This document shows positions 10,443 to 26,180 of a DNA stretch of 64,000 nt, one piece after another. Below the pieces are notes generated by a model. That model saw only the letters and a list, made by a program, of their open reading frames with translations. It was not told the origin of the DNA and did no database searches. The DNA lies in NCBI GenBank assembly GCA_049997875.1, contig JBEKRC010000001.1, positions 172,609 to 236,608 on the forward strand, in the 5' to 3' direction. A program made the translations under genes and the position numbers. How positions within the stretch are numbered: position 1 is the first letter of the stretch; each line of letters opens with the position of its first letter. Source of the DNA: Minisyncoccia bacterium. GTDB lineage: Bacteria; Patescibacteriota; Minisyncoccia; UBA6257; 2-01-FULL-56-20.

Positions 10443-10455
10443 GAGAGTCTATAAT

Positions 10456-10482
10456 CTTGAGGTCGCAAATTGCGACCTCAAG
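10456..10482 (+). terminator. hairpin after the caspase-like gene (no clear T-run)
   Basis: cttgaggtcgc-aaat-tgcgacctcaag, an 11-12 bp perfect stem. Confidence 0.35.
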
Positions 10483-10500
10483 TCGTGGGTGGGACTGGGT

Positions 10501-10523
10501 GAGCAGCGAAGCTCCTCACGAGG
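10501..10523 (+). repeat. decayed copy of tRNA-Arg 3' end (R3, att-like); probable right boundary of the tRNA-Arg island
   Basis: gagcagcgaagctcctcacgagg shares tcctcacgagg with the tRNA 3' end. Confidence 0.45.
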
Positions 10524-10558
10524 TGCTGGCCGTCGTGGACGATGTTTGAACGGCAATG

Positions 10559-11089: not shown

Positions 11090-11144
11090 ATTTCAATTAT
11101 AGAACTAGTTTCAGTTGCTGGCATGCCTGGACGATGTCTGAACC

Positions 11145-13453: not shown

Positions 13454-13801
13454 ATGGATTTCGCGCCGGCGTATCTTGTGCAGCGGTTCTTTTATCGCCT
13501 CACGGATTTTTTCCATCACTGGTATGTGGACGGCTCGCGCAGGATCGGGCATCGGTTTATCGCGACACTGGAAGAGGCCGATCGCGCGTTTGCGGTCAGA
13601 GTCACTCTCCGGTATTTTTTCCGGCCGCTCTACGGCGACTACACGGTCATCGGGCGCATCCTCGGCATTATTTTCCGGACCGGCAGGATTTTGATCGGCG
13701 GCGCGGTATACGCGGTGATTGCGCTGCTTTTCCTGCTTTTCTACGCGATCTGGCTCGCGACGCCGGCCGTTATTATTTTCAATGCCGCAAGAGGACTCTA
13801 A
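13454..13801 (+). CDS. possible small membrane protein (two C-terminal hydrophobic helices); may instead be noise or part of the downstream gene's 5' region
   Basis: ORF only. Overlaps the start of the AAA+ gene in a different frame. Confidence 0.25.
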   Translation: MDFAPAYLVQRFFYRLTDFFHHWYVDGSRRIGHRFIATLEEADRAFAVRVTLRYFFRPLYGDYTVIGRILGIIFRTGRILIGGAVYAVIALLFLLFYAIWLATPAVIIFNAARGL

Positions 13802-16304
13802 TCGCTACGAGTTGCGGTTTGATGATCCGCGGCTCAAGATGACGATCGCGGGAAGATTCACGGTCCGCGTCGTGAGCTATATCACCAACTTGGTTTTGCT
13901 TTTCGCCACAGCGACCCTTCTCATTTCGGAGATACGGCCGCTCCGGTACGCCGGGATTTTCCTGGGGCTCGTCTTTTTGGACCGGCTTGTGCATTGGGGC
14001 GAAGCGGATCTCCCTATTGCGGAGCTTCCCTCACAGGGAAAGATCAATCTTGCGTGGCTCCTCACGCCCGCCGCCTTCTCGGCGCTCGCGCGCGCATTTG
14101 ATTACGGCCTTGTCGCGAAGCAGAACTTTTTCCTTTGCGTCACCGGGCGTTTGATAGACCTTCCGCGCATGGGCGAGGGCCTGCGTCGCCTTGACGTGAA
14201 ACCGGACGAATTCAAAGCGAAATTCACCGAATTACTTACGGAGCCGGTTTCCGCGGAGATGGCGTCGCATGAGGAATATCAGAAAAGCGCCGAAGTGCTT
14301 GTGGCGGCCGCCTTCGGCGAAGCGCTTACCGCTGGCCATAATTTCATAGAGCCGAGCGATCTCTTCTCGGCCCTCGCAAAGGTAAAATCCGACGTTATGG
14401 ACCGGCTTTTCCACATGTTTGGAATAGAAGCGGGAGATTTGGAAACCGCACTCATCTTTTCGTCGGCCAGGCGCTCATTCATACGCCGTTTCCCCCGCGC
14501 CGTGAGCGGATTCATTTTTGAATCAAACCGCCACCTGCGGCACCGCATTATGAACCGAGCATGGACGGCGCGGCCAACGCCGACGTTGGACAGGTACGGC
14601 ACCGACTTCACCGACCTTGCGCGCGCGCAACAGGTGGGATTTCTTATCGGCCATGATGCAGAGTACGAACGGCTTGTGGAAACGCTTGGCCGCCCCATGA
14701 ATCCGAACGCCCTTCTCGTCGGCGAGCCGGGGATCGGGAAAGAAGCACTGGTGCAGCATCTCGCGTTCGCGCTTACCAAGGACAAGGTGCCGAAGGCGCT
14801 GTTTGACAAACGGCTTGTGTCAATTGAACTTCAAAATCTCGTGGCCGGCGCGCCGCCGGAGGAGCTTTCCGCGCGGCTCAAAAAGATCGTGGAGGAAATT
14901 TACATGGCGGGAAACATCATCATCTATATCCCGGATATCCACAATCTTGTCCACACCTCCGGCACGGCATACCTTTCGGCGGCGGACGTTTTGATGCCCG
15001 TCATCAAAGATAACGCGTTCCCCGTCGTGGGGGCCACGTATCCGAGAGAGTTCAAGCAGCTCATAGAGCCGCGGAGCGATTTTGTGGGCGCTTTCGAGGT
15101 CATTCACATGAACGAGGTGACCGAAGCGGAAGCGGGAAGGATCCTCACGTACGAAAGCATACTTCTTGAGCAGAAGAGCCGCGTCGTGATCAGTTTCGGC
15201 GCGGTGAAGTGCGCGGTCACGCTCGCCAAGAAATATTTTAGGGACAAACTTCTGCCGTCAAGCGCGGAGGAACTGTTAAAGTCCGCGCTCGTGGATGCGG
15301 AAGAGCGCAGTGAAAAGACATTGACCGCGGATAGGGTGATGGCGGTGGCCGAAGCGAAGGTGCACATGCCGATCCGCGAAGCGGGCGCGGAGGAATCGGA
15401 AAAACTGCTGCACCTTGAAGAGATTATCCACGAACGGCTTGTGGACCAGGAAGAGGCGGTCACCGCGGTCGCAGAGGCGCTCCGCGAATACCGGAGCGGT
15501 CTTACGCGCAAAGGCGGGCCGATCGCGAGTTTCCTTTTTGTGGGTCCCACCGGCGTGGGCAAGACCGAGCTTGCGAAGACGCTCGCAAAGGTGCAATTCG
15601 GTTCGGAGCAGATGATGGTGCGGTTTGACATGACGGAATATCAGGACAAGGCAAGCTACTCCCGCTTCATCGGCTCGCCGGACGGGGCTACGCGCGGCGC
15701 CTTGACCGACGCCATTCATGACAAGCCGTACAGCTTGGTCCTCCTTGACGAATTTGAGAAAGCGTTTCCGGACATCCTGAATTTGTTTCTTCAAGTTTTT
15801 GACGACGGCCGTCTCACGGACAGCCTTGACCGCACGATTGACTTTACGAATACGATCATCATTGCGACTTCCAATGCGCACTCCGACATCATCAATGAGT
15901 CCCTCGCAAAAGGCGAGTCGATGACGGACATCGCGGAATACCTCAAAAAACGGCTCATAGACGTCTTCAAGCCGGAGCTCCTGAACCGCTTTTCCAAAAT
16001 CGTCATCTTCAGGGATCTTGGCCCGAAGGAGCTCGGAAAGATCGTGGAACTGAATTTGAAGGAACTCGCGGAAACGGTGAAAGATCAAGGCATTGCGCTT
16101 GAGTTTGATCCGGCGGCAGTGGCGCAGCTTGTGAAGCTCGGCTACGACCCCGCGTTCGGCGCGCGTCCCCTGCGCCGCGTGATTGACGAAAAGCTCAAGG
16201 CGCCGCTCTCCCGCACCATCCTCTCAAAGAAGATCGGCAGAGGGAGCCGCGTGAAGCTTGTGCTTACGGGCGACGCCTTTGATTTTGTGGATGCGGCGCA
16301 ATAG
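13782..16304 (+). CDS. ClpA/ClpB/ClpC-family AAA+ unfoldase with N-terminal hydrophobic segment and degenerate NBD1
   Basis: NBD2 is canonical: GPTGVGKTE Walker A, LLDEFEKA Walker B, sensor/arginine region, and the ClpB-type C-terminal block. NBD1 has GEPGIGKEA (Thr to Glu) and IIIYIPDIH (no Walker B Glu). There is a Clp_N-like repeat after a hydrophobic helix, and no long M-domain. Confidence 0.75.
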   Translation: MPQEDSNRYELRFDDPRLKMTIAGRFTVRVVSYITNLVLLFATATLLISEIRPLRYAGIFLGLVFLDRLVHWGEADLPIAELPSQGKINLAWLLTPAAFSALARAFDYGLVAKQNFFLCVTGRLIDLPRMGEGLRRLDVKPDEFKAKFTELLTEPVSAEMASHEEYQKSAEVLVAAAFGEALTAGHNFIEPSDLFSALAKVKSDVMDRLFHMFGIEAGDLETALIFSSARRSFIRRFPRAVSGFIFESNRHLRHRIMNRAWTARPTPTLDRYGTDFTDLARAQQVGFLIGHDAEYERLVETLGRPMNPNALLVGEPGIGKEALVQHLAFALTKDKVPKALFDKRLVSIELQNLVAGAPPEELSARLKKIVEEIYMAGNIIIYIPDIHNLVHTSGTAYLSAADVLMPVIKDNAFPVVGATYPREFKQLIEPRSDFVGAFEVIHMNEVTEAEAGRILTYESILLEQKSRVVISFGAVKCAVTLAKKYFRDKLLPSSAEELLKSALVDAEERSEKTLTADRVMAVAEAKVHMPIREAGAEESEKLLHLEEIIHERLVDQEEAVTAVAEALREYRSGLTRKGGPIASFLFVGPTGVGKTELAKTLAKVQFGSEQMMVRFDMTEYQDKASYSRFIGSPDGATRGALTDAIHDKPYSLVLLDEFEKAFPDILNLFLQVFDDGRLTDSLDRTIDFTNTIIIATSNAHSDIINESLAKGESMTDIAEYLKKRLIDVFKPELLNRFSKIVIFRDLGPKELGKIVELNLKELAETVKDQGIALEFDPAAVAQLVKLGYDPAFGARPLRRVIDEKLKAPLSRTILSKKIGRGSRVKLVLTGDAFDFVDAAQ

Positions 16305-16321: not shown

Positions 16322-18073
16322 ATGCAGAAAGTTTCCAACCAATCGGTTGCAGAACTTCTCCGCGAGATCGGGGAATATCTTGAGATGCAAAATATTCCCT
16401 TCAAGCCGCGCGCCTATCAAAAAGCGGCGCTGGCGATAGAGGGATTGGAGGAGGAGGCAGCCGATATATATCAACGGGGCGGAATTAAAGCGCTCAAAGA
16501 GATTCCCGGCGTGGGCGTTTCCATCGCGGAGAAAATTGAGGAGTTCGTGCGGACCGGCAAAGTGAGATATTACGAAGATTTGAAAAAGAAAACGCCGGTG
16601 AATCTTGAGAGCTTGTCGCGCGTGGAAGGGCTCGGTCCGAAGTCAATCAAAAAGCTTTATCAAAAATTGGGCGTAAGCGACCTTGCGGGGCTTGAGAAAG
16701 CGGCGAAGGCGGGCAAGATCGCGAAACTCACAGGATTTGGCGAGAAGAGCGAAGAGAAAATTTTGAAGGGCATCGGTTTTGCGAAGAGTTCGGGCAGTCG
16801 GTTCCTCCTTGGTTATATGATGCCGCAGATCCGCGCCATTGAGGCGGGGCTCGCGAGAGTCGCGGGCGTTACGAAGGCGATCGCCGCGGGTTCCGTGCGC
16901 CGCAGGAAAGAAACGATTGGCGACGTGGATATCCTTGTCGTTTCCGCAAAACCGAAGGAGGCGATGGACTACTTCGTTTCCATGCCTGATGTGGTGTCGG
17001 TCATCGCGCACGGTGAGACGAAATCATCGGTAAAATTAAAATCGGGGATCAACGTTGATCTCCGGGTCGTGCCGAAGGAATCCTACGGTGCCGCACTCAA
17101 TTATTTCACCGGTTCCAAGGACCACAACGTCGCGTTGCGCAAGATTGCCGTCGCGAAGGGATGGAAACTGAACGAGTACGGATTGTTTTCTTTGAAAGGT
17201 AGCCGCGGAGGAGGCGGCCGGGAAAAAGTGATCGCGGGCGCCACCGAAGAGGAACTCTATAAGGCGTTCGGCATGGATTACATTGAGCCGGAGTTGCGCG
17301 AGAACACGGGCGAGTTGGAAGCCGCGCGGGCGCATCAGCTGCCGAAATTGGTCGGTTATGGCGATCTCCTGGGAGACCTCCAGACGCAGACCGACTGGAC
17401 CGACGGGTCAGATTCCATAGAAGGCCTGGCCAAGGCGGCGATGGCGCGCGGGCTCCGCTATATCGCGATCACCGACCACACGAAGCGGCTCGCGATGACG
17501 CACGGCTTGGACGCGGTGCGGATTTTGAAGCAGATGGCGGAGATTGATCGGCTGAACAAAAAGTTTGCGGGGAAGATCGTCATTCTCAAAGGGACCGAGT
17601 GCGACATTTTGAAGGATGGCACGCTGGATCTTCCGGATTCCGTTCTCGCCAAACTGGACGTGGTCGGGGTCTCGGTGCATTCGCATTTCAACCTTCCGCG
17701 TGCAGAGCAGACGGAGCGGCTCACGCGCGCCATGGCGAACCCGCACGCGGACATCCTTTTCCATCCTACCGGCCGGATCATCAACCGCCGCCCGCCGTAC
17801 GACGTGGATATGGAAGCGATCATCGCGCACGCAAAGAAAGCCGGCACCGTTCTTGAAATTGACGCGCTCCCCGAGCGCCTTGATCTCAAAGACGAGTATG
17901 TGCGGAAGTGCGTGGAGGCCCGCGTGCCCATGGCTATTGACTCCGATGCGCACGCCGCCGCGCATTTCTCCCTTTTGGAGTGGGGTATTGCGCAGGCCCG
18001 TCGCGGCTGGGCGACAAAAAGTGATATAATAAACACTTGGCCGTTGGAAAAAATGAAAAAGTTTCTAAAGTAA
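16322..18073 (+). CDS. polX: DNA polymerase X family with C-terminal PHP phosphoesterase domain
   Basis: N-terminal HhH pairs (GVGVSIAEK, GLGPKSIKK), Pol-beta-like nucleotidyltransferase core, and a PHP domain with His/Asp clusters. Confidence 0.85.
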   Translation: MQKVSNQSVAELLREIGEYLEMQNIPFKPRAYQKAALAIEGLEEEAADIYQRGGIKALKEIPGVGVSIAEKIEEFVRTGKVRYYEDLKKKTPVNLESLSRVEGLGPKSIKKLYQKLGVSDLAGLEKAAKAGKIAKLTGFGEKSEEKILKGIGFAKSSGSRFLLGYMMPQIRAIEAGLARVAGVTKAIAAGSVRRRKETIGDVDILVVSAKPKEAMDYFVSMPDVVSVIAHGETKSSVKLKSGINVDLRVVPKESYGAALNYFTGSKDHNVALRKIAVAKGWKLNEYGLFSLKGSRGGGGREKVIAGATEEELYKAFGMDYIEPELRENTGELEAARAHQLPKLVGYGDLLGDLQTQTDWTDGSDSIEGLAKAAMARGLRYIAITDHTKRLAMTHGLDAVRILKQMAEIDRLNKKFAGKIVILKGTECDILKDGTLDLPDSVLAKLDVVGVSVHSHFNLPRAEQTERLTRAMANPHADILFHPTGRIINRRPPYDVDMEAIIAHAKKAGTVLEIDALPERLDLKDEYVRKCVEARVPMAIDSDAHAAAHFSLLEWGIAQARRGWATKSDIINTWPLEKMKKFLK

Positions 18074-18583
18074 ATGACGCCGCCGCACGCACCCGAGCAG
18101 TTTGAAAAACCTCCCACCAAGAAACAGGTGGTCGCCGGCTTTGTGGTCTATCGGCGGACGAGCGACGGCATAAAATTCCTCTTGCTCTACCGCCGCGGCG
18201 ATTACTGGAATTTTCCGAAGGGGCATTTCCAGCCGGGAGAGCGCAGCATTGACGCGGCGCTCCGCGAACTTGAAGAGGAAACGGGCATTAAAAAATCCGA
18301 ATTGCGGATCGTGCCGAATTTCCGCGCCTATGAACGGTTTTATTTCCGCATCGGGGACCAGGGCATTTACGACACCGTCATTCTTTTTCTCGCCGAGACG
18401 CGCAAGGCAGAAGTAAAAATAATTCCGCGAGAGCACAGCGGCTACGGATGGTTCCTGTATCGCGACGCAATGGGTGTGATCGGCAAAAAATATGGCGACA
18501 CCCGGAAGGTTCTAAAGCAGGCGAACGATTTCCTCCGCGCGCGGAGCAGGCAATACCATCACCCGGCGCGGCCACCGCGTTAA
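18074..18583 (+). CDS. NUDIX hydrolase
   Basis: GHFQPGERSIDAALRELEEETG matches the Nudix box GX5EX7REUXEEXGU. Confidence 0.75.
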   Translation: MTPPHAPEQFEKPPTKKQVVAGFVVYRRTSDGIKFLLLYRRGDYWNFPKGHFQPGERSIDAALRELEEETGIKKSELRIVPNFRAYERFYFRIGDQGIYDTVILFLAETRKAEVKIIPREHSGYGWFLYRDAMGVIGKKYGDTRKVLKQANDFLRARSRQYHHPARPPR

Positions 18584-18624
18584 AGCAACTAAAAACCGGC
18601 GTCGCGCGCCGGCTTTCTTCCAAT

Positions 18625-18969
18625 TCATTTCACGAACGCCACTACTTTCTTGAATACCTCTGGTTCATGCTCGGCGAGGTCGGCGAGTATTTTTCTATCA
18701 AGCACTACTCCTTTCTTTTTGAGAGCAGCGATAAATTTGCCGTAGGTCATTCCTTCCTTGCGGACCGCGGCGTTGATTTTCACGTTCCAGAGCTGGCGGA
18801 AGACGCGCTTCTTTTCCTTGCGGCCCCGGAATGCGTGCGTCCATGCGTGGAGGAGCGCTTCCTTTGCGGCGCGTTCTTTTGATTTGCGGCCCCAGCGGAA
18901 TCCCTTGGTATATTTAAGGACCTTCGCCCGCCGCTTGTTCGCAATGGTTCCCCGTTTTACTCTTGGCAT
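18625..18969 (-). CDS. rplT: 50S ribosomal protein L20
   Basis: MPRVKRGTIANKRRAKVLKYTKGFRWGRK... Confidence 0.9.
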   Translation of the reverse strand: MPRVKRGTIANKRRAKVLKYTKGFRWGRKSKERAAKEALLHAWTHAFRGRKEKKRVFRQLWNVKINAAVRKEGMTYGKFIAALKKKGVVLDRKILADLAEHEPEVFKKVVAFVK

Positions 18970-18983
18970 TTGTCAACCAATGA

Positions 18984-19157
18984 TTAATAGTTTTTTAACG
19001 TTTTTATGGACATGCCAAGCGAGCGGGACTGCCGTTTGTTACGGATGTTTTTTTGGTTCGTCCGCGTGCGGAAATGGTCCACGGCCATTGGCCGGCGCAC
19101 GATCTTGCCGTTCTTCGTTATCCTTATTCGGTCGGTGACCGATTTACTCATGGTCAT
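18984..19157 (-). CDS. rpmI: 50S ribosomal protein L35
   Basis: Lys/Arg-rich 57-aa product MTMSKSVTDRIRITKNGKIVRRPMAVDHF... in the canonical infC-rpmI-rplT order. Confidence 0.7.
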   Translation of the reverse strand: MTMSKSVTDRIRITKNGKIVRRPMAVDHFRTRTNQKNIRNKRQSRSLGMSIKTLKNY

Positions 19158-19266
19158 TTTTTTTGTTTCCTGAAATGGTTTCGCGGAACCCCGTCGGGTT
19201 CGCCAAAGCTGGACGCTCGCTAAAACCGAGCCGCACAGACTCAACGAGGGAAGTGTACTACGCCTT

Positions 19267-19773
19267 TTATTTTTTTGCAATCTGGACGCTCATGCCGTAC
19301 TTCGCGAAGCGGGGCTCGGAGATGCACTTGTATTCCACGGGGATCATCTTCATAAAATCCGCAAGTTTCTCACGCGCCCAGTCCTTCATGCCTTTTTCGC
19401 GACCGCGGAGCCGCATGTTGATCTCCACCTGGTGGCCCTCCGCGAGGAATTCTTCAAGTTGTTTCAGTTTGATCAAGAGGTCGTTCCGCGCCGCGCGGGC
19501 GCTGATCTGCACGTGTTTCAGGCCGCCGCCTTTCTGCGCGAGCCGTTCTTTTCTCTCGCGCTTCGCCTCCTCATAGCGGAACTTGTCGTAGCTCATGAGG
19601 CGCGCCACGGGCGGTTTTGCGTTCGGCGAGATCTCAATGAGATCCACGCCTTCGGCGGGAAGCGTCAAGGCAAGCGCCTTCTCACGCGGAAGAATGCCGA
19701 GATTTTCCCCTTTCTCGCTTATAACGCGGAGTTCGGGTGCGGTTATTTGGCTGTTGATGCGGGGTTTTTGTAT
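19267..19773 (-). CDS. infC: translation initiation factor IF-3, probably with a non-AUG (AUA/AUU-type) start
   Basis: The ORF track starts at a TTG (protein LTLPAEGVDLIEISPNAKPPVARLMSYDKF...). Hand translation upstream in frame gives ...IQKPRINSQITAPELRVISEKGENLGILPREKALA, which is the IF3 N-domain. The earliest plausible start is ATA at 19771-19773. Confidence 0.7.
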   Translation of the reverse strand: MQKPRINSQITAPELRVISEKGENLGILPREKALALTLPAEGVDLIEISPNAKPPVARLMSYDKFRYEEAKRERKERLAQKGGGLKHVQISARAARNDLLIKLKQLEEFLAEGHQVEINMRLRGREKGMKDWAREKLADFMKMIPVEYKCISEPRFAKYGMSVQIAKK

Positions 19774-19956: not shown

Positions 19957-20532
19957 ATGGACGAAAAACCAGTGAGCCACCCCGGCGTTCCGCAGGAAGC
20001 GTATCACGCGCTCGGGAAGAAGACCTTCGTGATTTTTCTTCTGGACCGGATACACATTGCTGCGGTATTTTTGCTCATTGCAATTGCCCTCTTTGCCCTT
20101 CAGGGCCAGCAATTCTTAAAAAATGTCTTTTCCCTTGACCTTAGTTCCTATGTCGGCTTTTCCGCATGGGTCGCGTTTATCGTCTTCGCGCTGGTTGCCG
20201 CCGTCACTTTTTTGGTTACATGGCTCATTTATAGGAACTACAAATTTTATCTTGGCGACGATGCGCTGAAGATCAAAAAAGGAGTTTTGAACAAAGAAGA
20301 AACCGCGATCCCGTACCGCCAGATCCAGAATGCGGACATAGAAAGAGACCTTTCGTTCCAGATGCTTGGCTTAAGTCGGCTTGTCATTTTGACCGCGGGC
20401 GAGGAGGAAGAAAAATCCGGCGAGGACGAATCGGAAGGAATCCTGCCGGCAATGGACAAAGACCTTGCGGAGTGGCTCCAGGCGGAGTTGCTCAAGCGTG
20501 CGAACGTGCAGAAAGTGGTAGAGGCGCAGTAG
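19957..20532 (+). CDS. bacterial PH-domain (bPH_2/YdbT-like) membrane protein
   Basis: Two N-terminal TM helices, then ...ALKIKKGVLNKEETAIPYRQIQNADIE...LGLSRLVILTAG, followed by an acidic tail. Confidence 0.6.
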   Translation: MDEKPVSHPGVPQEAYHALGKKTFVIFLLDRIHIAAVFLLIAIALFALQGQQFLKNVFSLDLSSYVGFSAWVAFIVFALVAAVTFLVTWLIYRNYKFYLGDDALKIKKGVLNKEETAIPYRQIQNADIERDLSFQMLGLSRLVILTAGEEEEKSGEDESEGILPAMDKDLAEWLQAELLKRANVQKVVEAQ

Positions 20533-20537
20533 GCGCA

Positions 20538-20600
20538 ACGCGAAGCTTTCTCGCTCCTTTGAAGCCAGAGTCGCTCAAAAGCTTCGTGTTGCGCTTACCT
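20538..20600 (+). terminator. long imperfect hairpin plus T-run terminator
   Basis: gcgcaacgcgaagcttt ... aaagcttcgtgttgcgc followed by ttaccttcttcgtttt. Confidence 0.5.
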
Positions 20601-20635: not shown

Positions 20636-20950
20636 GGGGACGCACTGGCTTTGATAAGGGCAAGCAGTGGGTTTGCGGGCCGAGGGCGACGACGTAACCG
20701 CCGCACAAAACATAACTGCCAACTCTAATAGAGTTACAGCTCCGGCATTCGCTTACGCGTAATGCCGGGATCGGTGAGTCCGGGTTCCTTGGGCTCATAA
20801 CCGGTCTTATATAAGGGGACTAGCCGCGGCGGACGATCCTATGCCGCGCGCGAAAATCAGGATCACGTTGCTAGTGTTCCACTAGACACGCCCGTAGACA
20901 GCCCACGCGCATTACCTTTACACGGCGGTTCGATTCCGCCCGTCTCCACA
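20636..20950 (+). ncRNA. ssrA: tmRNA (SsrA)
   Basis: 5' GGGGACG pairs with 3' CGTCTCC (one G-U). It has the T-arm GGTTCGATTCC and the 3' end ccgcccgtctcca (CCA not encoded). Internal ORF ...NRVTAPAFAYA-TAA. A TACAAT -10 box lies just upstream. Confidence 0.8.
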
Positions 20951-20962
20951 AATGTCTAGTGT

Positions 20963-21670
20963 ATGATTGTCGGTAATTTTTTGTGGGGAAGTTTGGAAAG
21001 GAAGGCCCCATCTGCGCATCCCAATTTCTTTTGGTATATAATTCTTAATATCTCACATATGAAAGAATTGCTAGATACACCACAAAGAAACGAGAAGTCG
21101 CGGGCTTTCAAGGAATTGTATTCCAGGGTTTATGATGGTATGAGGCGTGAAAAGATTGAGCGTCTAAGGAAGCACAGAGAGCCGACAGAGTATGAAATTA
21201 CACAAAGGTGCTTTGAGGACGACCTTGAACCCCAGGTGAGACGTGCATTGGAGATACTTTCCCAAAAGGGGTACAGGACGACAGAAAGCGGCTTTTACAT
21301 CTATGGTGACAGGGAAAAAGATTCGCCATCGTTTCTGACCCAGTATATAACGGGATTTTTTGATGTTGGCGATGAAACGGAAAAGAAACTTAAGGAAATT
21401 GGCGTGAAGATCTCCAGAAGGGAAAATGATTATCCCAGGCTTAGCAATGCGGATTTTGACCCTCGTGAGTCTACTATCACGACTATAGAGTTTATGCTGC
21501 CCGAACCGGATATTGAAGCAATAACTTCTCAATGGGTGAAGATCGCCGAATTGCTACCGGTCGTTTCCGAAGATAAGCGCGTTGTTTGCGATAAGAAAAG
21601 GTTGGAGACCAATAGGATCATGCTGGAGGTAGAGGAACGTCGCGATAGGGATCGATATAGGATTTGGTAA
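20963..21670 (+). CDS. hypothetical protein (first gene of the tmRNA-adjacent island; possible ATG start at 21060)
   Basis: ORF track 235 aa with an internal ATG at 21060. AT-rich relative to the backbone. No domain recognised. Confidence 0.4.
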   Translation: MIVGNFLWGSLERKAPSAHPNFFWYIILNISHMKELLDTPQRNEKSRAFKELYSRVYDGMRREKIERLRKHREPTEYEITQRCFEDDLEPQVRRALEILSQKGYRTTESGFYIYGDREKDSPSFLTQYITGFFDVGDETEKKLKEIGVKISRRENDYPRLSNADFDPRESTITTIEFMLPEPDIEAITSQWVKIAELLPVVSEDKRVVCDKKRLETNRIMLEVEERRDRDRYRIW

Positions 21671-21694
21671 GAGGATCGTGCGCCCTACGTGCCA

Positions 21695-21765
21695 CTCACT
21701 GGCGCCCGATTTATAAGCGTCGGTAATTTTCTCAAGTATTCACCGACATCCGTTGTTAATCATTT
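21695..21765 (+). repeat. island repeat unit (family also at 22975-23050, 24765-24840, 26115-26180; partial copy right after the tmRNA 3' end)
   Basis: ggcgcccg...tcggtaattttctcaagtattcaccgacatccgttgttaatcatttgac. The copies at 22975 and 24765 end in gaccactcgtttccaca / gaccactcgtctcc, resembling the tmRNA 3' terminus ccgcccgtctccaca. Confidence 0.5.
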
Positions 21766-21867
21766 GACAGAAAACTACAACAGTGCTAAAACATACGCAG
21801 CCATAGAATATCGTGGCTTGACGCAAAATACTGCCGCAAAAGGAGCACGTTTATGTTTCCGAAATAC

Positions 21868-22215
21868 ATGGAACGGGGCTCGCATGGCCCTATCGTCCAG
21901 CTTGTGATTGTATTCTTGCTCGGTGCCGGATGCGGAAAGGGCCTCGTCGCAGACGGTATGTACGGTGACGTGGCCGTTGCGAACATGCAGGCGTGGCAGC
22001 GTGCCAATGGCATCAGCGATGATGGCGGGTGCGGTCCCGAAACCAGAAACTGCATGAAAGAACGCTGGGGCTTTGATCTCGAACTGGCGTCCCGGTACCT
22101 GCTAGCTGATGCCCCAACCGTCTTTTTCCAACCCGAAGGAGGATGGATTAGGTGGCACCCGGCCGAGGAATACGCGGACCCTCTCCAGTCGTCCCCCACG
22201 TCCCCCCTCGAGTAA
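21868..22215 (+). CDS. small lipoprotein with peptidoglycan-binding-like domain
   Basis: Signal peptide with lipobox LLGAGC. DGMYGDVAVANMQAWQRANGISDDGGCGPETRNCM resembles PG_binding_1. Confidence 0.45.
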   Translation: MERGSHGPIVQLVIVFLLGAGCGKGLVADGMYGDVAVANMQAWQRANGISDDGGCGPETRNCMKERWGFDLELASRYLLADAPTVFFQPEGGWIRWHPAEEYADPLQSSPTSPLE

Positions 22216-22449
22216 TGAGAGAACAGGCTGCGGACAATGCCGCATCGGATCAGGGCGGTAGCAGCAAAATACTACCGCCTCTCTCCTAAGATTATCCGCG
22301 TGGTGGGTACTTTTAGGCGAGAGGATGAATGTCATGAACATAGTGCACGTTGTGAATGTCGCAAGCCCGAACAAGCCTGCTTTTATATTTTTCTTATGTC
22401 ATCTATATTGTATGTAGCTAGCGAATGGATTTTCACCAAAGGAGGTTTT

Positions 22450-22851
22450 ATGGGTACTGCTACCGAACAGCCGCGACTGAAAGTTTCCTGGATTTCTGCA
22501 GTTTGCCTGATATTGCTGAGAAACCTGGCACGGGGAAAACGGTGCGGTCACCGGGATGTTGCGGAGGAATTGAAGCAATTGAAAGATGCCAATCTGCGGT
22601 TTTCCGATCTTGGACTGCGTGCGGCACCCGGCGGCTTCATGTCCGAAGATGCGCTCTTCTGGCTCTGGGAACTTTATCCGATGGGATACTACAAAGGCGA
22701 CCCTCATGCCACAGGGCTCATCTTGACCGACAATGGCAGAAAGTTCTGCGAGGAGATTGTGCGCGAGGAAGCCGAGAAGAATCCCGAGGAGTTTCAATCA
22801 GTGGCAAAAGCTCTTGAAGCGGACACTCTGGCGATATCTATCATCTCATAG
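22450..22851 (+). CDS. hypothetical protein (about 133 aa)
   Basis: An ATG preceded by aaaggagg, downstream of a copy of the tandem 8-mer motif. Confidence 0.4.
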   Translation: MGTATEQPRLKVSWISAVCLILLRNLARGKRCGHRDVAEELKQLKDANLRFSDLGLRAAPGGFMSEDALFWLWELYPMGYYKGDPHATGLILTDNGRKFCEEIVREEAEKNPEEFQSVAKALEADTLAISIIS

Positions 22852-22974
22852 AAGTTCTTCACCCATGTACATTGCGCCCGTCTTCTCGAAAGAAAGGATG
22901 GGCGCTTTTCGTACGCAGGAGGGGATTCAAACAAATGAACATCGTGAACGTAGTGTATGTCCTACGGGATGCTG

Positions 22975-23050
22975 ACCGGCGCCCGGTCCATCAGCCTCGG
23001 CAATTCTCTCAAATATTCCCCGAGTTCCAACGTTGACCACTCGTTTCCAC
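22975..23050 (+). repeat. island repeat unit copy (decayed tmRNA-3'-end-like att remnant)
   Basis: ggcgcccggtccatcagcctcggcaattctctcaaatattccccgagttccaacgttgaccactcgtttccaca. About 110 nt in total are shared with 24720-24840. Confidence 0.5.
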
Positions 23051-23203
23051 AGTGCTCGATATCGAACTCAGAAAGAGCTCGATTTTTGTTACATAATCTG
23101 TTTTTGTCGAGGCCTGGACGATCTTCAAGCGATTTTGAACGACCCTGAAGTTGCAAAAACTTTGTAAACTCAGGGTTGTGGGCGTGGTAATCGCAATGAT
23201 CTC

Positions 23204-23398
23204 TCACGCCCGTTTGTGGGACTTCTGCCACCGGACGTAGCAATCCTCGCCTTTCTCGTCGGGTATCCGATGGAAGAAGACATAGACGTACTTTCCGGGA
23301 AGTTTGAAGCGGATGCACTCTTCGCCAGGCAAAAGGTACTCATGGCAAGAGTAACACTGGAAGAGGAATCCATCCCTTTCAATCCATAGTTTGTCCAT
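23204..23398 (-). CDS. small Cys-rich hypothetical protein (64 aa)
   Basis: An aaggagg RBS directly precedes the ATG. CYSCHEY...EECIRF pattern. Confidence 0.4.
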   Translation of the reverse strand: MDKLWIERDGFLFQCYSCHEYLLPGEECIRFKLPGKYVYVFFHRIPDEKGEDCYVRWQKSHKRA

Positions 23399-24342
23399 AG
23401 GTGCCTCCTTCAGTTCGCGAGATTGTTTTTCTAGGGGATGAACGAGCCGGACTCCTCGACATCAGAGAGGCAAACTTGGCACAGATTTCCCCGATGGTCG
23501 AGGTTGAAGAAGAACCGATTAGACCCTCCCTGTCAAAGAGCTGGGTTGGAGCGACGGGTCGCGAGTCCCGCATCCTCCGATTTAAGAGATCGGTGCTCGC
23601 CTTGAGCTACGCCCCTCTCTGGGGCTGTCCCAGAGAGCGGAGTACCTTTTTCTTGACTTACTTCGTTTATAATATGCGAGGCACCTACCGTCAAGCACTC
23701 CCCGTAAGGGTTCAATAGCTTGTAACCAAAATGAACGTATGCACATTGTGAATGTCCTTGGAATGCCGAATGGTATCTTGTTTAACGGAAATATTAATAA
23801 AACTAAAAAGGGGAGCCAGAGACGATCACGTGAGTCGCTCCAACTCCCCTCTCTTGCTTCTTGCTGGCGCAGGCGGTTGCCTTATTTTGCGATGAGACCC
23901 GAATGGTTGTACCTAAGGCGGTCGATTTGAGTGCAATGATAAGGGTCTTCATCTTCCGGTTGGCCACCCAGGGTTGTCTGCTCCCCATGGGGAGCAAGAT
24001 GAATTGTGTACCCCCGGGGCCTTGCGAGATCTTCCTCTCGCTGTTTGAGTTGTCCCTCGGTCAACTTAGACTTTGTCTTCGCCACTGCGCACCTCGTGTT
24101 TGAGATTACTATGGTATTCACTACCACAGCCGAACTACTACCTTTTATCATTATAACACCTCTCTTATAAAAAAGCAAACATAATCTGCTACGGTTCAAC
24201 AGCTTGGAACCAAAATGAACGTATGCACGTTGTGAACGTCGCAGGGGGATAATCGGGAACAATCTGAAAAACAGAGAAGCTCCACAGCAATGAGAGCATG
24301 AGCTTCCCTGCGTGTGGAGCTGTTGTGTCGAAGGTCTGCCAG

Positions 24343-24627
24343 TTACCAGATGCTGTATGAATCTTCGGAAGGATGGCTTTCTGTAAGGCGGCGCCCTACC
24401 TGTTCCTGTACGCGGTCTTGCGCTTTGGCAAAGCGCTTTCGTGAATTGCCGGGGCGATGAGGCGGTTTTACGTGCCCGTCCTGTCCTGCGCGCTCAACAA
24501 GGTCGATTTGGCCAGCACGGAGGCCAAACTGGACGATAGCTCTGGCGAAGGCGTATTTCTTCCCATGCCGCCCTTTAACTTCCGTGATTTCCCTAGTGTC
24601 TCTTCTTCTGAACCTGAAAGTGGCCAT
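24343..24627 (-). CDS. small basic hypothetical protein (94 aa)
   Basis: An aaggagg RBS precedes the ATG at 24627. MATFRFRRRDTREITEVKGRHGKKYAFARAIVQFGL... Confidence 0.4.
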   Translation of the reverse strand: MATFRFRRRDTREITEVKGRHGKKYAFARAIVQFGLRAGQIDLVERAGQDGHVKPPHRPGNSRKRFAKAQDRVQEQVGRRLTESHPSEDSYSIW

Positions 24628-24764
24628 AGGCCCCTCCTTTGGATTCGCAAACATTTGCGAACACCTGATTAGGTTATAGATGTCGGATTGCGGTATGTCA
24701 AGCGTAAGTCTAACGGCGGCGAGTGAACATAGTGTGCATAGTGCAAATCCTATGGGATACTGAT

Positions 24765-24840
24765 CGGTACCCGGTTTAGCAGCTGTGGTAGTTTTCTCAA
24801 ATATTCCCCGAGTTCCAACGAAGACCACTCGTCTCCGCCG
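24765..24840 (+). repeat. island repeat unit copy (decayed tmRNA-3'-end-like att remnant)
   Basis: ggtacccggtttagcagctgtggtagttttctcaaatattccccgagttccaacgaagaccactcgtctcc. Confidence 0.5.
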
Positions 24841-25220
24841 ATTTCCGTTTTTGGTCGGTTGCGACCATCTCAAAGTGTTTTTTCCAAGCAACCACAAGGT
24901 TTTTATCGTGGAGGCTTAAGTTTGCCGCCATGAAAACAAGCAACCTCGGCACGGTGCCCCCTATTGATTTTTAGGCCGATTTGCTTTTAAATGCTCTCGG
25001 AAAGAGGTACCCATGGCGATGGACATTCTATGGTTGAACATGGAGGCAGAGGCATTCGGCTCCCCGCAAGCGCCACAACCAACATTTACGGGAACTCGCG
25101 GATCGACAGGCAGCCGCGAGTGTGCATATTACCCTCGGCACGCTTTATGCACGACGAGCGAATGAGCGCCCAAACAATAACAGCCCCATCTCTGGAGCTG
25201 TTTTTGTACACCTGTGCATC

Positions 25221-25589
25221 CTACCAATAAAGCAAAACGAGGCCGAGAATTAATGCGACCACCCCGCAGAACACGAGCACGCCGCCCTTATTGAATTTCC
25301 TGTAGAGAGAAACAGACGCATCGGGAAAGAAAAAGATGAAAGCCCCCTTTATGAGGGCCATCCACCCGATGATGGTGACGAGCAGCGGCAGGCCGGAGGT
25401 CCACATATTGTTAAGGACAACGATTACTGCGCCGATCAACACGGCAAGAAATCCCCACAGCCACAAGATCCCCTTGTTCTGAACCGACTCTTCCATGGCG
25501 GCGGCGGTAGCCTTGCTTCTGATGACTATTGATATGCCCACCAGTGCGAAGAAAATTCCCAGAATCTGAGCGATGACGATGGTATTCAT
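25221..25589 (-). CDS. small integral membrane protein (4 TM)
   Basis: 122 aa, four hydrophobic helices. Confidence 0.5.
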   Translation of the reverse strand: MNTIVIAQILGIFFALVGISIVIRSKATAAAMEESVQNKGILWLWGFLAVLIGAVIVVLNNMWTSGLPLLVTIIGWMALIKGAFIFFFPDASVSLYRKFNKGGVLVFCGVVALILGLVLLYW

Positions 25590-25747
25590 ATTTTAAACAT
25601 TAATTGTTAATTAATGACACCGGGTCGGCCTTTCTATAATCATAGTTCTGTTTGCATTAGAACTCCAATGTTGGCAAAAAGTCCCGTGCATCGTGAACGT
25701 ATGCACGTTGTTGAACCGGCAGAGAATCAAGAGGGCGGTTCCGGCCC

Positions 25748-26089
25748 TTACTTTTCTTTAGGGAGGTATGGTTTAAGTTCAGCCGGGGCCATCCCGATCT
25801 GCCGTAGTATTTTTTGTCGCACCGTCGCGACATACGATGGGGTTACCACGAGCGCCTCTGCGACCTCACCTATTGATTCTCCTTCAACGAATAATCTCCG
25901 AGCCACTTCTTCATAGTCCTTGCCCTTTAGGCGAGAGATCCGTTTCTCTATGAGCTTTCTCAACTCTTCCCTTTCCACGGCCTCGTCCGGCCCTAATGTC
26001 GAATCGGGAAGTCGGTGAGTTATTCTCTCCTCTCTGCCTTCAGGCCGCCCCTCAAAATTGCGAGGTTGTTCGGGGAATGATTCTTTCAT
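25748..26089 (-). CDS. stand-alone sigma-70 region 4 (HTH) domain protein
   Basis: LKGKDYEEVARRLFVEGESIGEVAEALVVTPSYVATVRQKILRQ matches sigma70_r4. No region 2 is present (113 aa). Confidence 0.5.
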   Translation of the reverse strand: MKESFPEQPRNFEGRPEGREERITHRLPDSTLGPDEAVEREELRKLIEKRISRLKGKDYEEVARRLFVEGESIGEVAEALVVTPSYVATVRQKILRQIGMAPAELKPYLPKEK

Positions 26090-26114
26090 TTGATTTGGAT
26101 TATAGCCTCATTCA

Positions 26115-26180
26115 AAAACTCAGGCAACTTCCTTAGATAATCCCGAGTTCCAATGTTGACCATTCGTTTTCACCCCAATG
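26115..26180 (+). repeat. partial island repeat unit; probable right boundary of the tmRNA island
   Basis: ataatcccgagttccaatgttgaccattcgttttcacc. Confidence 0.4.

Follow-up and report, generated by a model that had tools for sequence, protein, structure and literature searches.

The 5.2 kb between ssrA, the tmRNA gene, and maf in this Patescibacterium are punctuated by two kinds of repeats, which raises the question of what these repeats are and how they came to lie there. Within the window, by which we mean the whole 64-kb stretch of DNA analysed, four copies (R1-R4) of a ~113-nt unit and six arrays of three to four tandem 8-9-nt units (RTGNAYRTN) are confined to the ssrA-maf interval, with zero occurrences elsewhere. 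The first-pass annotation had proposed successive integrations at ssrA followed by loss of the integrases, and this stands as the best reading, given that the locus is variable and that relatives carry intact recombinase-bearing elements exactly there. The interval is thus likely a graveyard of small mobile elements, serially inserted and since deprived of their recombinases, with the long repeats as their probable leftover junctions. Tandem ssrA islands are an already known kind of locus, here with variation; the published precedent is that of Dehalococcoides, where a ~540-aa CcrB-like serine recombinase lies on the reverse strand adjoining attL (PMC3146451). The tmRNA gene and the long units are located as follows:

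20636..20949, plus strand: ssrA (ARAGORN; Rfam RF00023, 104.6 bits), encoding the tag ANSNRVTAPAFAYA
21659..21771, minus strand: R1, the most decayed copy, 62% identical to R2, with a decayed right end
22935..23051, minus strand: R2, core CCACTCGTTTCCACA at 23037-23051, tail GNEWSTLELGEYLRELPRLMDRAPVSIP and stop at 22962-23048 (tail HMM E 2.5e-19)
24723..24839, minus strand: R3, 79% identical to R2, core CCACTCGTCTCCGCC at 24825-24839, tail GDEWSSLELGEYLRKLPQLLNRVPISIP and stop at 24750-24836 (tail HMM E 1.6e-19)
about 26087..26175, minus strand: R4, the putative outermost junction, adjoining maf, core CCATTCGTTTTCACC at 26160-26174

The units share a layout in which a core resembling the ssrA 3' end is followed by an orphan minus-strand tail of 28 codons, GNEWSTLELGEYLRKLPxLLNRxPxSIP and a stop. 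The cores of R2, R3 and R4 match the tmRNA end (CCGCCCGTCTCCACA) at 10-12 of 15 positions, and among R1-R4 the exact string tccaca is found only at the end of R2. The repeats had been described earlier as decayed and resembling the tmRNA 3' end; they are real, present in four copies and placed at module boundaries, but they are not chiefly tmRNA 3' ends, since only the last ~10-15 nt are ssrA-like and the other ~85 nt, judged by their sequence, hold the last 28 codons of an element gene, now an orphaned C-terminus. In R1 no core, tmRNA-like end or array could be recognised, and the tail remnant ends in VGEYLRKLPTLINRAPVSGT and a stop (coding 21688-21759, stop 21685-21687 by translation; tail HMM E 1e-8). 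The right 32 nt of R4 are 91% identical, and its tail is broken by a 1-nt deletion into NEWSTLELG and DYLRKLPEFLNEAIIQIK with the stop, seen as two tail-HMM fragments in different frames. Tail and core units also occur in five further loci, namely L007 (two units, L7a and L7b), L008 (one, L8a), L087, L088 and L089, and the tail HMM run across 89 loci matched only the window and these. The homology among seven units runs from the array through CCACTCGTYTCCAC and ends there.

The tail carries a coding signature. The minus-strand frame is open through the core and reaches the same stop in every copy after repair of 1-nt indels (R4, L7a, L8a). Compared with the other frames of the six, it has the most synonymous codon changes and the fewest second-position changes; the mean BLOSUM62 score of its replacements is positive in nine of ten copy pairs and exceeds that of every other frame in all ten; the scores of the other five are nearly always negative. 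In the segment EYLxKLPQLLNR, R3 and L087 differ by eight synonymous changes against one non-synonymous. The tail might alternatively be a micro-protein gene standing by itself, of about 22-33 aa, with its start at the TTG/ATG of LELG/MELS or at ATGs further upstream; the unit would then be a small conserved gene and not a recombination scar. Indeed, ELG is preceded by TTG in five copies and by ATG in L087; P0001 and P0002, with 33 and 58 aa, were both called as genes starting at ATG; and in R4 an ATG stands 13 codons before the tail. However, the conservative or synonymous variation extends upstream of the start, through GNEWS(T/S), R3 and L087 have upstream in-frame stops and no start, a convincing Shine-Dalgarno sequence is absent, three of the seven copies are frameshifted and the unit always sits at an island boundary, all of which make a micro-protein gene quite improbable. 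No full-length protein with this tail was found among 1.84 billion representative proteins, where just two orphan ORFs (33 and 58 aa) came up, or in a search of 5.8 billion sequences. Conserved peptide-like ORFs (MNIVNVVYVLRDADRRPV...) had also been suspected at the arrays; the one in R3 stops after 18 codons, the 8-nt units break the frame, and the apparent similarity comes from reading the conserved minus-strand tail in antisense.

The genomic settings of the units bear on how they multiplied. In L087 and L089 the unit marks the far end of a small ssrA island in other genomes, with differing flanks (a HAD gene in L087, DUF5343 in L089), and the L088 unit lies on a 1.1-kb contig without a tmRNA. 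L008 lacks window positions 24840-26100, exactly the DNA between an R3-like left and an R4-like right part, in agreement with the units being module boundaries. The same arrangement could be that of a recombinant or a deletion between R3 and R4, and would then favour an origin within a single island, by local duplication or by homologous recombination, with the long repeats as cassette boundaries rather than traces of independent integrations; a 48-nt block duplicated at 92% identity, 484 nt apart, points the same way. Nevertheless, the substitutions that separate the units (12-38%) follow a codon-like pattern, which requires long divergence under selection and not recent local copying, and the units occur at ssrA islands in the unrelated contexts of L087 and L089, so that we judge local duplication improbable as the origin of the long repeats.

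The integration reading draws on what relatives carry at the same site. The suggested comparison at the ssrA locus revealed a hypervariable ssrA-smpB interval: the tmRNA-smpB distance ranges from 1.5 to >10 kb, and the flanks align at 75-88% among relatives while the island content does not. In six loci (L010, L042, L045, L051, L092 and L093) a large serine recombinase (LSR) of ~525-535 aa, CcrB/XisF-like (also described as CcrB/DsiB-like) and matching the phrog_95 integrase, is encoded on the opposite strand adjoining ssrA, the end of its ORF (...SNSxGVE[MT]xG[IV]EP) being antisense to the acceptor and T arm. L079 has a homologous LSR with a like C-terminus, and ARAGORN found no tmRNA in that locus. 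An HMM of the native LSR tail, built from 16 'native' tails, located orphan LSR tails at the far island end of L010 (14187-14285, E 1.9e-14) and L092 (5254-5421, E 1.3e-15), and another lies at the far end in L093 (1686-1936). The recombinase genes of these three relatives are split, and the orphaning of the C-terminal tail at the far end places attP inside the recombinase gene. The attL and attR of the relatives' LSR elements have only GTGGA in common, these recombinases leaving a shared core of ~5-6 nt and not a long ssrA duplication. The sites of large serine recombinases are short (~50 bp) and lack arm sites, and the directionality factors of these enzymes bind to the recombinase, not to DNA. 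The pattern TGTGGA-N14-GTTGGAACTC is common, with the same spacing, to core-proximal DNA of the window and to attR of L010 (local alignment p 0.004-0.02).

We hypothesize, with some confidence, that small integrative elements entered the 3' end of the tmRNA gene, the target probably being the last ssrA bases (...CGTCTCCACA) on the attL side, and that the ssrA-maf interval is their tandem array, now fixed and decayed. In this Patescibacteria clade, the recombinase gene of the elements would span attP, and integration at the last ssrA bases would place the recombinase body beside the tmRNA, reading into it in antisense, and leave the last ~30 codons orphaned at the far junction (attR). In the window, every long repeat would be such an attR-type junction, made of an ssrA-like core and the 28-codon tail, which may once have been part of a recombinase; the R2 and R3 junctions would add a 3x9-nt array directly after the stop. 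Newer elements would have pushed older ones outward, making R4, which adjoins maf, presumably the oldest, and after later deletion of the recombinase bodies small cargo genes with promoters of their own would have remained. The ssrA 3' end is identical in L092, which carries an integrated LSR element. The tail has no significant similarity to the native LSR tails (hhalign), a hybrid test did not exceed shuffles, the tail HMM found no match in the LSR-bearing loci, and neither a recombinase nor a remnant was detected in the islands of the window, L007 and L008 using the LSR HMM on six-frame fragments and Pfam. A partial repeat copy reported to abut the tmRNA (20962-20980 against 21712-21730, 16/19) does not exceed chance: by our estimate, comparing all pairs in 6 kb should yield about one exact 12-mer match.

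The modules hold small genes and, of the nine island proteins, only one of 94 aa recurs, in L008:

21059..21670, plus strand: 203-aa ORFan (ORF list), putative cargo of the module nearest the tmRNA
21853..22215, plus strand: 120-aa protein (PF01471, E 4.5e-5; phrog_2649 endolysin, E 1.1e-7, profile positions 172-237 of 261)
23546..23616, minus strand: tRNA-like gene or pseudogene with a CUU anticodon and an 8-nt T loop (Rfam RF00005, scoring 38.8 bits where the gathering score is 29)
23882..24085, minus strand: 67-aa ORFan, promoter-like TTGCTT-N17-TATAAT (24178->24150), hairpin and T-run terminator at about 23800-23850
24343..24627, minus strand: 94-aa ORFan, 87% identical to its L008 counterpart
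25221..25589, minus strand: 122-aa membrane ORFan (ORF list), preceded by array a6
25748..26089, minus strand: 113-aa stand-alone sigma-70 region-4 / KorA-like HTH protein (TIGR02937, E 4.9e-7)

The 203-aa ORFan has no match in Pfam, NCBIfam or PHROG and none by tblastn in 80 related loci; the 67-aa ORFan likewise has no family match (Pfam, NCBIfam, PHROG), and the AlphaFold model of the 94-aa protein is uninformative (pLDDT 51). The 120-aa protein, which retains only the peptidoglycan-binding domain of a phage endolysin, appears from its profile matches to be prophage debris. The tRNA-like gene was not called by ARAGORN, its lowest-energy fold is not a cloverleaf, and it has its own promoter-like site, TTGACG-N17-TATAAA (23694->23666). 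The sigma-70 region-4 assignment made earlier for the 113-aa protein was borne out (TIGR02937 model positions 84-161 of 165), with Pfam KORA and Sigma70_r4_2 at E about 0.02, a match to phrog_36, and an AlphaFold model (pLDDT 70) whose Foldseek neighbours are sigma region 4 and KorA. The start codon of its gene overlaps the R4 tail stop (ATGA), and its promoter-like site, TTGCCT-N17-TATAAT (26127->26099), lies inside R4.

The six motif copies noticed in the first pass were recovered as arrays at 22325-22360 (a1), 22935-22961 (a2, in R2), 23731-23756 (a3), 24215-24240 (a4), 24723-24749 (a5, in R3) and about 25686-25715 (a6), and the ~50-nt duplication said to contain the fourth is the 48-nt block mentioned above. 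Arrays outside the long repeats are these:

22325..22360, plus strand: a1, four tandem 9-mers ATGAATGTC ATGAACATA GTGCACGTT GTGAATGTC
23709..23756, plus strand: 48-nt block, copy 1, a 19-bp near-palindrome GGTTCAATAGCTTGTAACC and a3
24193..24240, plus strand: 48-nt block, copy 2, a palindrome GGTTCAACAGCTTGGAACC and a4
25686..25715, plus strand: a6, GTGCATC GTGAACGT ATGCACGTT GT..

The degenerate array pattern gave four matches against 0.01 expected, and the near-palindrome of the block two against 0.01. A regular expression for at least three tandem units gave six overlapping matches in the 64-kb window, corresponding to five arrays, all on the plus strand and inside the island; a6 has only two adjacent units by this expression, and merges into an inverted palindrome half (CGGTTCAACA, minus strand, 25718->25709). 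In 1.35 Mb of 86 loci, the expression matched only the same strain, the L007 island (three times) and one chance site. Generic dispersed REP/MITE-like elements or integron-type attC sites, dense here by chance, are likewise short, intergenic and punctuate small ORFan genes; such dispersal had been named as grounds for rejecting an ssrA island, and the window has no unit or array outside the island (DNA pattern, six-frame tail HMM). The 1.35 Mb of related loci have none except in the ssrA-adjacent island of L007, and the repeats do not share a conserved hairpin (consensus energies of -3.5 and -5.3 kcal/mol, with almost no covariation). There is no integron integrase, and viral contigs gave no matches. 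Over the 64-kb window and the related loci, a generic or attC origin is largely refuted, and we consider it extremely improbable.

The arrays are probably protein-binding sites carried by the elements. An array directly follows the tail stop in R2, R3, L7a and L7b, and lies 47 nt after it in L088; L8a has a single array unit, and the L087 and L089 units have none. The remaining arrays are found upstream of near-consensus promoter-like sites, 21-35 nt from the -35 boxes. Promoters here are consensus matches only; a formal scan gave seven sites against 5.5 expected, without excess. Array a1 is 21 nt upstream of a plus-strand promoter-like site (22382-22409) and of a 133-aa gene (22450-22851), copy 1 of the block lies 14 nt upstream of the minus-strand promoter of the tRNA-like gene, counted from its -35 box, and a5 is 21 nt from the promoter-like site of the 94-aa ORFan (TTGACA-N17-TATAAC, 24701->24673). 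These positions fit putative operators for one DNA-binding protein, and the arrays, with a near-palindromic unit core (GTGMAC/ACGT), may be cis elements of the element backbone that most likely bind an oligomerising protein at the junction region and at promoters. Their spacing of 8-9 bp, less than a helical turn, speaks against this. No homologue of the sigma region-4 protein was found near the arrays of L007 or L088.

The arrays might instead be recombination accessory sites, occupied by an arm-binding domain or by a directionality factor resembling Xis, Cox or Apl and assembling on the direct repeats next to the core, with stand-alone arrays as junction relics or dual-use sites (Apl, Cox). 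We hold this to be unlikely, as the recombinases at the ssrA of relatives are large serine recombinases without arm sites, no Xis-like gene was recognised (Pfam, NCBIfam, PHROG) and the L087 and L089 units lack arrays. In its favour, arrays are tied to the junction unit in the divergent copies R2, R3, L7a, L7b and L088, begin about 88 nt from the core and keep a fixed orientation relative to ssrA in both genomes. Cox, a winged-HTH protein that oligomerises on DNA, is both excisionase and repressor (PMC3936717), and Apl recognises direct repeats spaced by one helical turn, at att as well as between promoters (PMC7498355).

Two smaller features deserve mention. The homology with L008 begins right of block copy 2 (24245), where L008 instead has a tmRNA-3'-like core. 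A possible extra displaced tmRNA-3'-like fragment occurs in the window itself:

22871..22890, plus strand: ATTGCGCCCGTCTTCTCGAA, 16/20 to ssrA 20933-20952

This fragment hints only weakly at a further displaced ssrA end (with <=3 mismatches allowed in 15, one match was obtained and 0.045 expected) and overlaps the hairpin terminator of the 133-aa gene.

The interval between the tmRNA gene (ssrA) and maf, here called the island, is where the first-pass annotation had described long repeats and short tandem arrays, and repeat finding recovered both. The tmRNA gene is intact, non-conserved DNA begins directly 3′ of it at position 20950, and maf follows from about 26185.

The tmRNA gene and the long repeat units of the island (window coordinates)
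20636-20949, + strand: tmRNA gene (ssrA)
21659-21771: unit R1, 62% to R2
22935-23051: unit R2, the reference unit
24723-24839: unit R3, 79% to R2
about 26087-26175: unit R4, the right part of a unit, 91% over 32 nt

The island has a G+C content of 49.6% against 52.7-53.4% in its flanks, and an identical island, identified by its 113-aa protein, is found on at least 14 metagenome contigs, the same island recurring in all six places displayed among the matches listed. Loci anchored on smpB in species-representative genomes place the host in Patescibacteria (Paceibacteria/Minisyncoccia). Comparative genomics at the ssrA locus confirms conserved flanks around an interval of 1.5 to >10 kb in relatives: the flanks align to those of relatives at 75-88% identity, whereas the island is not alignable, and the distance from smpB to the tmRNA gene is 5.9 kb in the window, 4.2 kb in L008, 1.5 kb in L009, 8.6 kb in L010, 2.9 kb in L012, 5.6 kb in L023 and >10 kb in L007 (loci from other genomes or metagenome contigs). 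Only one of the nine island proteins, of 94 aa, recurs in relatives (L008, 87%). No integrase or recombinase gene was found on board the island using Pfam, an HMM of large serine recombinases (LSRs) on six-frame fragments, NCBIfam and PHROG. The tmRNA gene is the best-known bacterial integration hotspot and tandem ssrA islands are classic; taken alone, the window is an ordinary decayed hypervariable island at a tmRNA gene.

Several minor features accompany the locus and its counterparts. A 120-aa protein (21853-22215) has only a peptidoglycan-binding domain of the type seen at the C-terminus of phage endolysins and is probably a prophage gene fragment. A 21-nt inverted repeat with 90% complementarity and a 28-nt loop lies at 20529-20598, between a bPH-domain gene and the tmRNA gene, and is probably a terminator or processing element. 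The ssrA island of L007 carries a reverse transcriptase (18208-19604; PF00078, E 1e-23) adjoining a 115-aa ORF, which by eye resembles an Avd-type four-helix-bundle accessory protein, so that the locus looks like a diversity-generating retroelement (DGR). The island of L008 contains a 316-aa ORF (locus 13591-14541), by eye like a DDE-type (rve) transposase, and an extra tmRNA-3′-like core, AACCTCCGTCTCCACCAG (reverse-complement coordinates 7955-7972), which is closer to the tmRNA ends of L009, L010 and L023 than to that of L008 itself.

Each long unit encodes on the minus strand one C-terminal peptide, hereafter the tail, with a shared stop. The tail reads GNEWSTLELGEYLRELPRLMDRAPVSIP in R2 and GDEWSSLELGEYLRKLPQLLNRVPISIP in R3, each up to the stop; R1 retains the remnant ..VGEYLRKLPTLINRAPVSGT with the stop, and in R4 the frame is broken by a 1-nt deletion. 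Two further units occur in L007, one intact and one with a 1-nt deletion, and the single L008 unit has likewise lost 1 nt. Pairwise codon comparisons reveal that, among the reading frames, that of the tail has the most synonymous and the fewest second-position changes. Its replacements have mean BLOSUM62 scores above zero (0.13 to 1.33) in nine pairs out of ten and of -0.25 in the tenth, R3 against a metagenomic copy, L087; in all ten, no other frame of the six scores as high, and the other five are negative in nearly every pair. The tail frame and its antisense partner are not told apart by the pN/pS ratio alone (0.41 vs 0.47, respectively), but are by codon-position counts and by BLOSUM scores. 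The tail frame stays open across the core, the ssrA-3′-end-like end of the unit (TGT GGA AAC GAG TGG, encoding CGNEW), upstream of which the copies are unrelated to each other and most meet a stop within 4-12 codons. Given the open frame through the core and the unrelated sequence upstream, the units are therefore the orphaned 3′ portions of a protein gene that crossed the core. In seven units, conservation extends over about 100 nt to the element side of the core; the cores are oriented as in ssrA and placed exactly where unit homology ends, and they match ssrA at only 10-12/15 nt. The segment 24840-26100 of the window is missing from L008, whose sole unit has the left flank of R3 and the right flank of R4; thus, the units are points of module gain and loss.

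Other readings of the repeats fared less well. Integron gene cassettes, with the units as attC sites, are not supported, as consensus folding found no conserved RNA secondary structure in the long repeat on either strand and no tyrosine recombinase was found. Dispersed REP- or MITE-like elements are largely refuted, as regex and tail-HMM searches find zero units or arrays outside the island within the 64-kb window of the ~0.9-Mb genome, and confinement to the island thus holds across the window. The short conserved peptides thought to be opened by the arrays on the plus strand are dismissed because they are the antisense of the tail's minus-strand frame; their lengths are not conserved, that of R3 stops after 18 codons, and their replacements are non-conservative. 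The partial copy said to abut the tmRNA gene is a 16/19 match, at chance level.

Further copies of the tail were sought elsewhere. Scanning metagenome contigs with a peptide pattern brought up L087, in which a tmRNA gene (1717-1900, minus strand) is followed by one EamA-type transporter gene, the tail GNEWTKMELSEYLQKLPQLLNRQVTMTS with its stop, the core and then a HAD gene. When 1.84 billion representative proteins were searched exhaustively with a profile, only two real matches emerged, both of them orphans, of 33 and 58 aa, and no full-length owner. One of the two (L089) lies ~1 kb past a tmRNA gene with one gene between; in the other (L088), an array (AACGTTCAC GACATTCAC CACGTTCAC) begins 47 nt after the tail stop. 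These divergent copies, L087, L088 and L089, retain frame and stop, and over the stretch EYLxKLPQLLNR, R3 and L087 differ by eight synonymous changes and one replacement. In six-frame translations of all loci, matches of the tail HMM are confined to known units. A profile search of 5.8 billion proteins found no full-length protein with a window-type tail; a fused 146-aa ORF used as query found nothing, and no owner was found in viral contigs by DNA or by peptide, nor in metagenome contigs by DNA pattern. Long ORFs entering the tmRNA gene in the tail's frame number zero in 39 tmRNA loci, and no recombinase body N-terminal to a window-type tail was found at the other junction in any data searched. 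A full ORF ahead of the tail, such as an LSR body ending ...CGNEWSTLELGEYLRKLP, would identify the owner.

A recombinase is present at this site in relatives. In L010, a 532-aa LSR (17586-19184) is encoded on the strand opposite the tmRNA; its codon V505 begins at the last base of the tmRNA, and the ORF runs on as ...GVETEGIEPSS..., which is encoded antisense to the acceptor and T arm. Homologues occupy the same position in L042, L045, L051, L092 and L093, remnants are seen in L009 and L062, and L079 has a homologue with a like C-terminus in a locus where no tmRNA was called. The protein is CcrB/XisF-like and matches the phrog_95 integrase; within NCBIfam, the L010 LSR matches CcrB best, with an E of 7e-21, far below the model cut-off. 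A search of viral contigs with the LSR gave no match. Among the best 120 homologues (P0004-P0123), the strict tmRNA-antisense motif occurs in 55 and by eye more end in this way; many others form a group that instead terminates antisense to the 3′ end of a tRNA (VDPTGLEPATPSLQMR...; for example, VDPTGLEPATPSLQMRCSTR), whose sequences suggest sister lineages that may likewise use tRNA genes as targets. A further 16 of the 120 end in a distinct, 'native' tail, V[DE]M[VL]xxSWNxLExx[IV]F[ED]..., and one such copy is carried on the element L090, together with PrimPol, ParB_N and a second serine recombinase, with no tmRNA nearby. A native-tail HMM detects orphans of this tail, ~32-45 aa long, on the recombinase strand at the far end of integrated elements in all three testable cases.

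Orphan native tails at the far end of integrated elements (locus coordinates, recombinase strand)
L010, 14187-14285: E 1.9e-14, 4.9 kb from the tmRNA
L092, 5254-5421: E 1.3e-15, ~6.2 kb from the tmRNA; LSR body at 10001-11587
L093, 1686-1936: frameshifted, ~9.8 kb from the tmRNA; LSR body at 10001-11584

The LSR gene in L010, L092 and L093 is split by its own integration, the body beside the tmRNA gene reading into the antisense of the latter. The orphan tails at the far junction place attP within the recombinase ORF in this clade, so that the last ~30 codons are exchanged on integration at the ssrA end. The 3′ end of the L092 tmRNA is identical to that of the window. The attL and attR of these relatives have only GTGGA in common, and direct repeats of the tmRNA end of at least 11 nt are absent from the distal boundary of the LSR-bearing loci, which is consistent with a ~5-nt LSR core; the only such repeat in these loci, of 11 nt, lies ~200 nt past the tmRNA, inside the L051 LSR gene. 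Outside the attR core, the recombinase strand of L010 (14160-14186) and L092 (5279-5296) has a T-loop-like GTTCAA(T/C)TCC followed by (G/T)ATGTGGAC, which could represent the remaining, dyad-symmetric half of attB or else belong to the tmRNA terminator. The proposal that the window records successive integrations at ssrA that have lost their integrases is supported by the variable locus and by the recombinases at the site in relatives, with the amendment that the repeats are mainly orphan coding tails. The split serine-recombinase gene is the more interesting result, and it is found in the relatives, not in the window.

The geometry of the window units is that of the LSR elements, with a core, an orphan tail opposite the ssrA strand and cargo genes in the direction of the tail, and TGTGGA-N14-GTTGGAACTC is common to the window units and the L010 attR with equal spacing (p 0.004-0.02). 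From this geometry we infer, rather than observe, that the window tail was once part of a recombinase, because the tail families are not demonstrably related (hhalign of the window tail against the LSR native tails gave nothing), the tail HMM has no match in LSR-bearing loci, and the LSR HMM detects no LSR remnant in the islands of the window, L007 or L008. Two likenesses noted by eye were also discarded: a hybrid reading, in the LSR frame to WNS and then in the tail frame, is no better than shuffled controls, and the right flank of R2 as an LSR C-terminus is unsupported (E 41).

We know of recombinase genes that span attP solely from tyrosine integrases (Mx8, SSV), and the open-access literature yielded no description of a serine recombinase gene across attP or of such elements in Patescibacteria. 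The closest description to the window locus is that of the ssrA-GIs of Dehalococcoides, tandem islands directly downstream of a single-copy tmRNA gene, bounded by ssrA-end repeats with extra conservation around them, with a ~540-aa CcrB-like serine recombinase on the reverse strand beside attL and some modules without recombinase (PMC3146451). Here too, tandem islands follow the tmRNA, the ssrA-end-like boundary repeats have added conserved sequence, and islands lack an integration module; the reverse-strand CcrB-like recombinase near attL is seen in L010, L042, L045, L051, L092 and L093, and the ParB_N and second serine recombinase of the unintegrated relative L090 recall the Dehalococcoides module. 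However, the window is without any integration module, the ~540-aa reverse-strand recombinase included, in place of a clean 20-bp repeat there is a common core of about 5-15 nt, crossover takes place at the extreme end of ssrA instead of in the T loop, the recombinase ORF crosses attP, and the modules are tiny (0.5-1.8 kb) and belong to Patescibacteria.

The Mx8 and SSV integrases 'extend across attP', and the Islander paper cites Tojo et al. 1996 for the altered C-terminus of IntP (PMC4383910). As in these systems, attP lies inside the ORF, so that integration alters or removes the recombinase C-terminus and leaves an orphan C-terminal piece at the other junction; the window units share the ORF continuous through the core, the conserved stop beyond it and the coding signature. 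Unlike these tyrosine recombinases with tRNA targets, the enzymes of the relatives are LSRs that target the last ssrA bases, and the window tail family has no owner gene found. The same survey lists the tmRNA gene as the most enriched target and, as of 2014, serine integrases as not known to target tDNAs (PMC4383910). The arrangement also resembles the tandem arrays of Islander/TIGER, in which an intact tDNA is followed by islands and then by displaced tDNA-like fragments in the same orientation, but Islander expects one integrase per island plus a recognisable tDNA fragment, and here each of these is absent or of insufficient length. Standard island finders depend on an integrase and on a long tDNA fragment; the orphan tails mark scars even after recombinase loss and could aid in setting island limits in Patescibacteria genomes.

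Between ssrA and maf there are six arrays, each with three or four tandem units of 8-9 nt (RTGNAYRTN).

Tandem 8-9-nt arrays and promoter-like sites of the island (window coordinates)
22325-22360: array a1, 21 nt before a + strand promoter-like site
22935-22961: array a2
23731-23756: array a3, 35 nt from promoter-like TTGACG-N17-TATAAA (tRNA-like gene)
24215-24240: array a4, 35 nt from promoter-like TTGCTT-N17-TATAAT (67-aa ORF)
24723-24749: array a5, 21 nt from promoter-like TTGACA-N17-TATAAC (94-aa gene)
about 25686-25715: array a6, ahead of a 122-aa gene
within R4: promoter-like TTGCCT-N17-TATAAT, predicted to drive the gene of the 113-aa sigma-r4/KorA-like HTH protein (25748-26089, minus strand)

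A regex for at least three units gives six overlapping matches in the 64-kb window, representing five arrays, all on the + strand and all in the island; the sixth (a6) has just two regex-acceptable units, and TRF did not detect the arrays. The 86 other loci, 1.35 Mb in all, add just three arrays, all of them in the equivalent island of L007, and a single chance hit. An array lies directly past the tail stop in R2, R3 and both L007 units (L7a, with five array units, and L7b), and 47 nt away in L088. On the tail strand the unit reads NACGTKCAC and holds ACGT and the near-palindrome GTGCAC/GTTCAC, so array orientation may matter little. The promoter-like sites are consensus matches only, of which a formal promoter scan found no overall excess; the four on the minus strand predict transcription starts near 23659, 24143, 24666 and 26092. 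A 19-bp near-palindrome with an AGCT centre (GGTTCAAYAGCTTGKAACC) lies at 23709-23727 and 24193-24211, between the array (a3 or a4) and the -35 box.

The arrays are likely binding sites of an oligomerising element-encoded protein, and a regulatory role is somewhat more likely than one in recombination; serine recombinases need no arm sites. The KorA operator is GTTTAGCTAAAC, and the island HTH protein resembles KorA weakly, in Pfam (E 0.022) and in Foldseek (5clv); the half-site CGGTTCAACA shows no enrichment in the window, and no homologue of the protein lies near the arrays of L007 or L088. The AlphaFold model of the 94-aa protein, a candidate ribbon-helix-helix repressor, was uninformative, and no cognate DNA-binding protein for the arrays was identified. 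In MetJ and omega operators, ribbon-helix-helix dimers bind cooperatively to short palindromic boxes set in tandem; the arrays resemble these operators in their 3-5 contiguous 8-9-bp boxes with an internal palindrome (ACGT / GTGCAC) upstream of promoters, but no ribbon-helix-helix protein was recognised. Phage 186 Apl and P2 Cox, which serve both as directionality factor and as repressor, bind direct repeats at att and at promoters (PMC7498355, PMC3936717). The likeness is of layout only, namely short tandem direct repeats beside the attachment site and at promoters, and differs in that no cognate winged-HTH gene was identified here, the spacing is 8-9 bp vs about 10.5, and theirs use tyrosine integrases.

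A tentative reading, possible and on balance doubtful, would join these strands: Patescibacteria would host a large family of elements with CcrB/DsiB-like LSRs, directed at the terminal bases of tmRNA (and tRNA) genes and with attP in the LSR ORF. As attP lies inside the ORF, integration would replace the last ~30 residues of the enzyme with an antisense-tRNA-encoded peptide, a built-in switch between free and integrated forms. The window units would be orphan tails left by a sister lineage for which no intact recombinase has ever been assembled, and the 9-mer arrays the operator by which an element-encoded oligomerising protein couples cargo expression or excision to the switch. Less ordinary than the window itself is the use of this hotspot, in a clade of ultra-small bacteria, by LSRs whose gene spans attP; the tail swap could bear on the control of LSR direction and is of interest for serine-integrase engineering. 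To our knowledge, almost no regulation has been described in Patescibacteria, and the arrays offer a clean, testable candidate binding site.

Two further observations concern short repeats and small genes beside them. L090 has two tandem 19-nt direct repeats (GAAGCGGAGATTTTGGCT / GAAAGCGGAGATCTTGGCT) at 11030-11070, between the recombinase stop and the ParB_N gene, a relative position equal to that of the window 9-mer arrays. The tRNA-like sequence at 23546-23616 (minus strand; anticodon CUU, Lys) has an 8-nt T loop, a 1-72 mismatch and a lowest-energy fold that is not a cloverleaf; neither ARAGORN nor the whole-window Rfam scan picked it up, but it scores 38.8 bits with the Rfam tRNA model against a gathering score of 29, and it has its own promoter-like site and upstream array.
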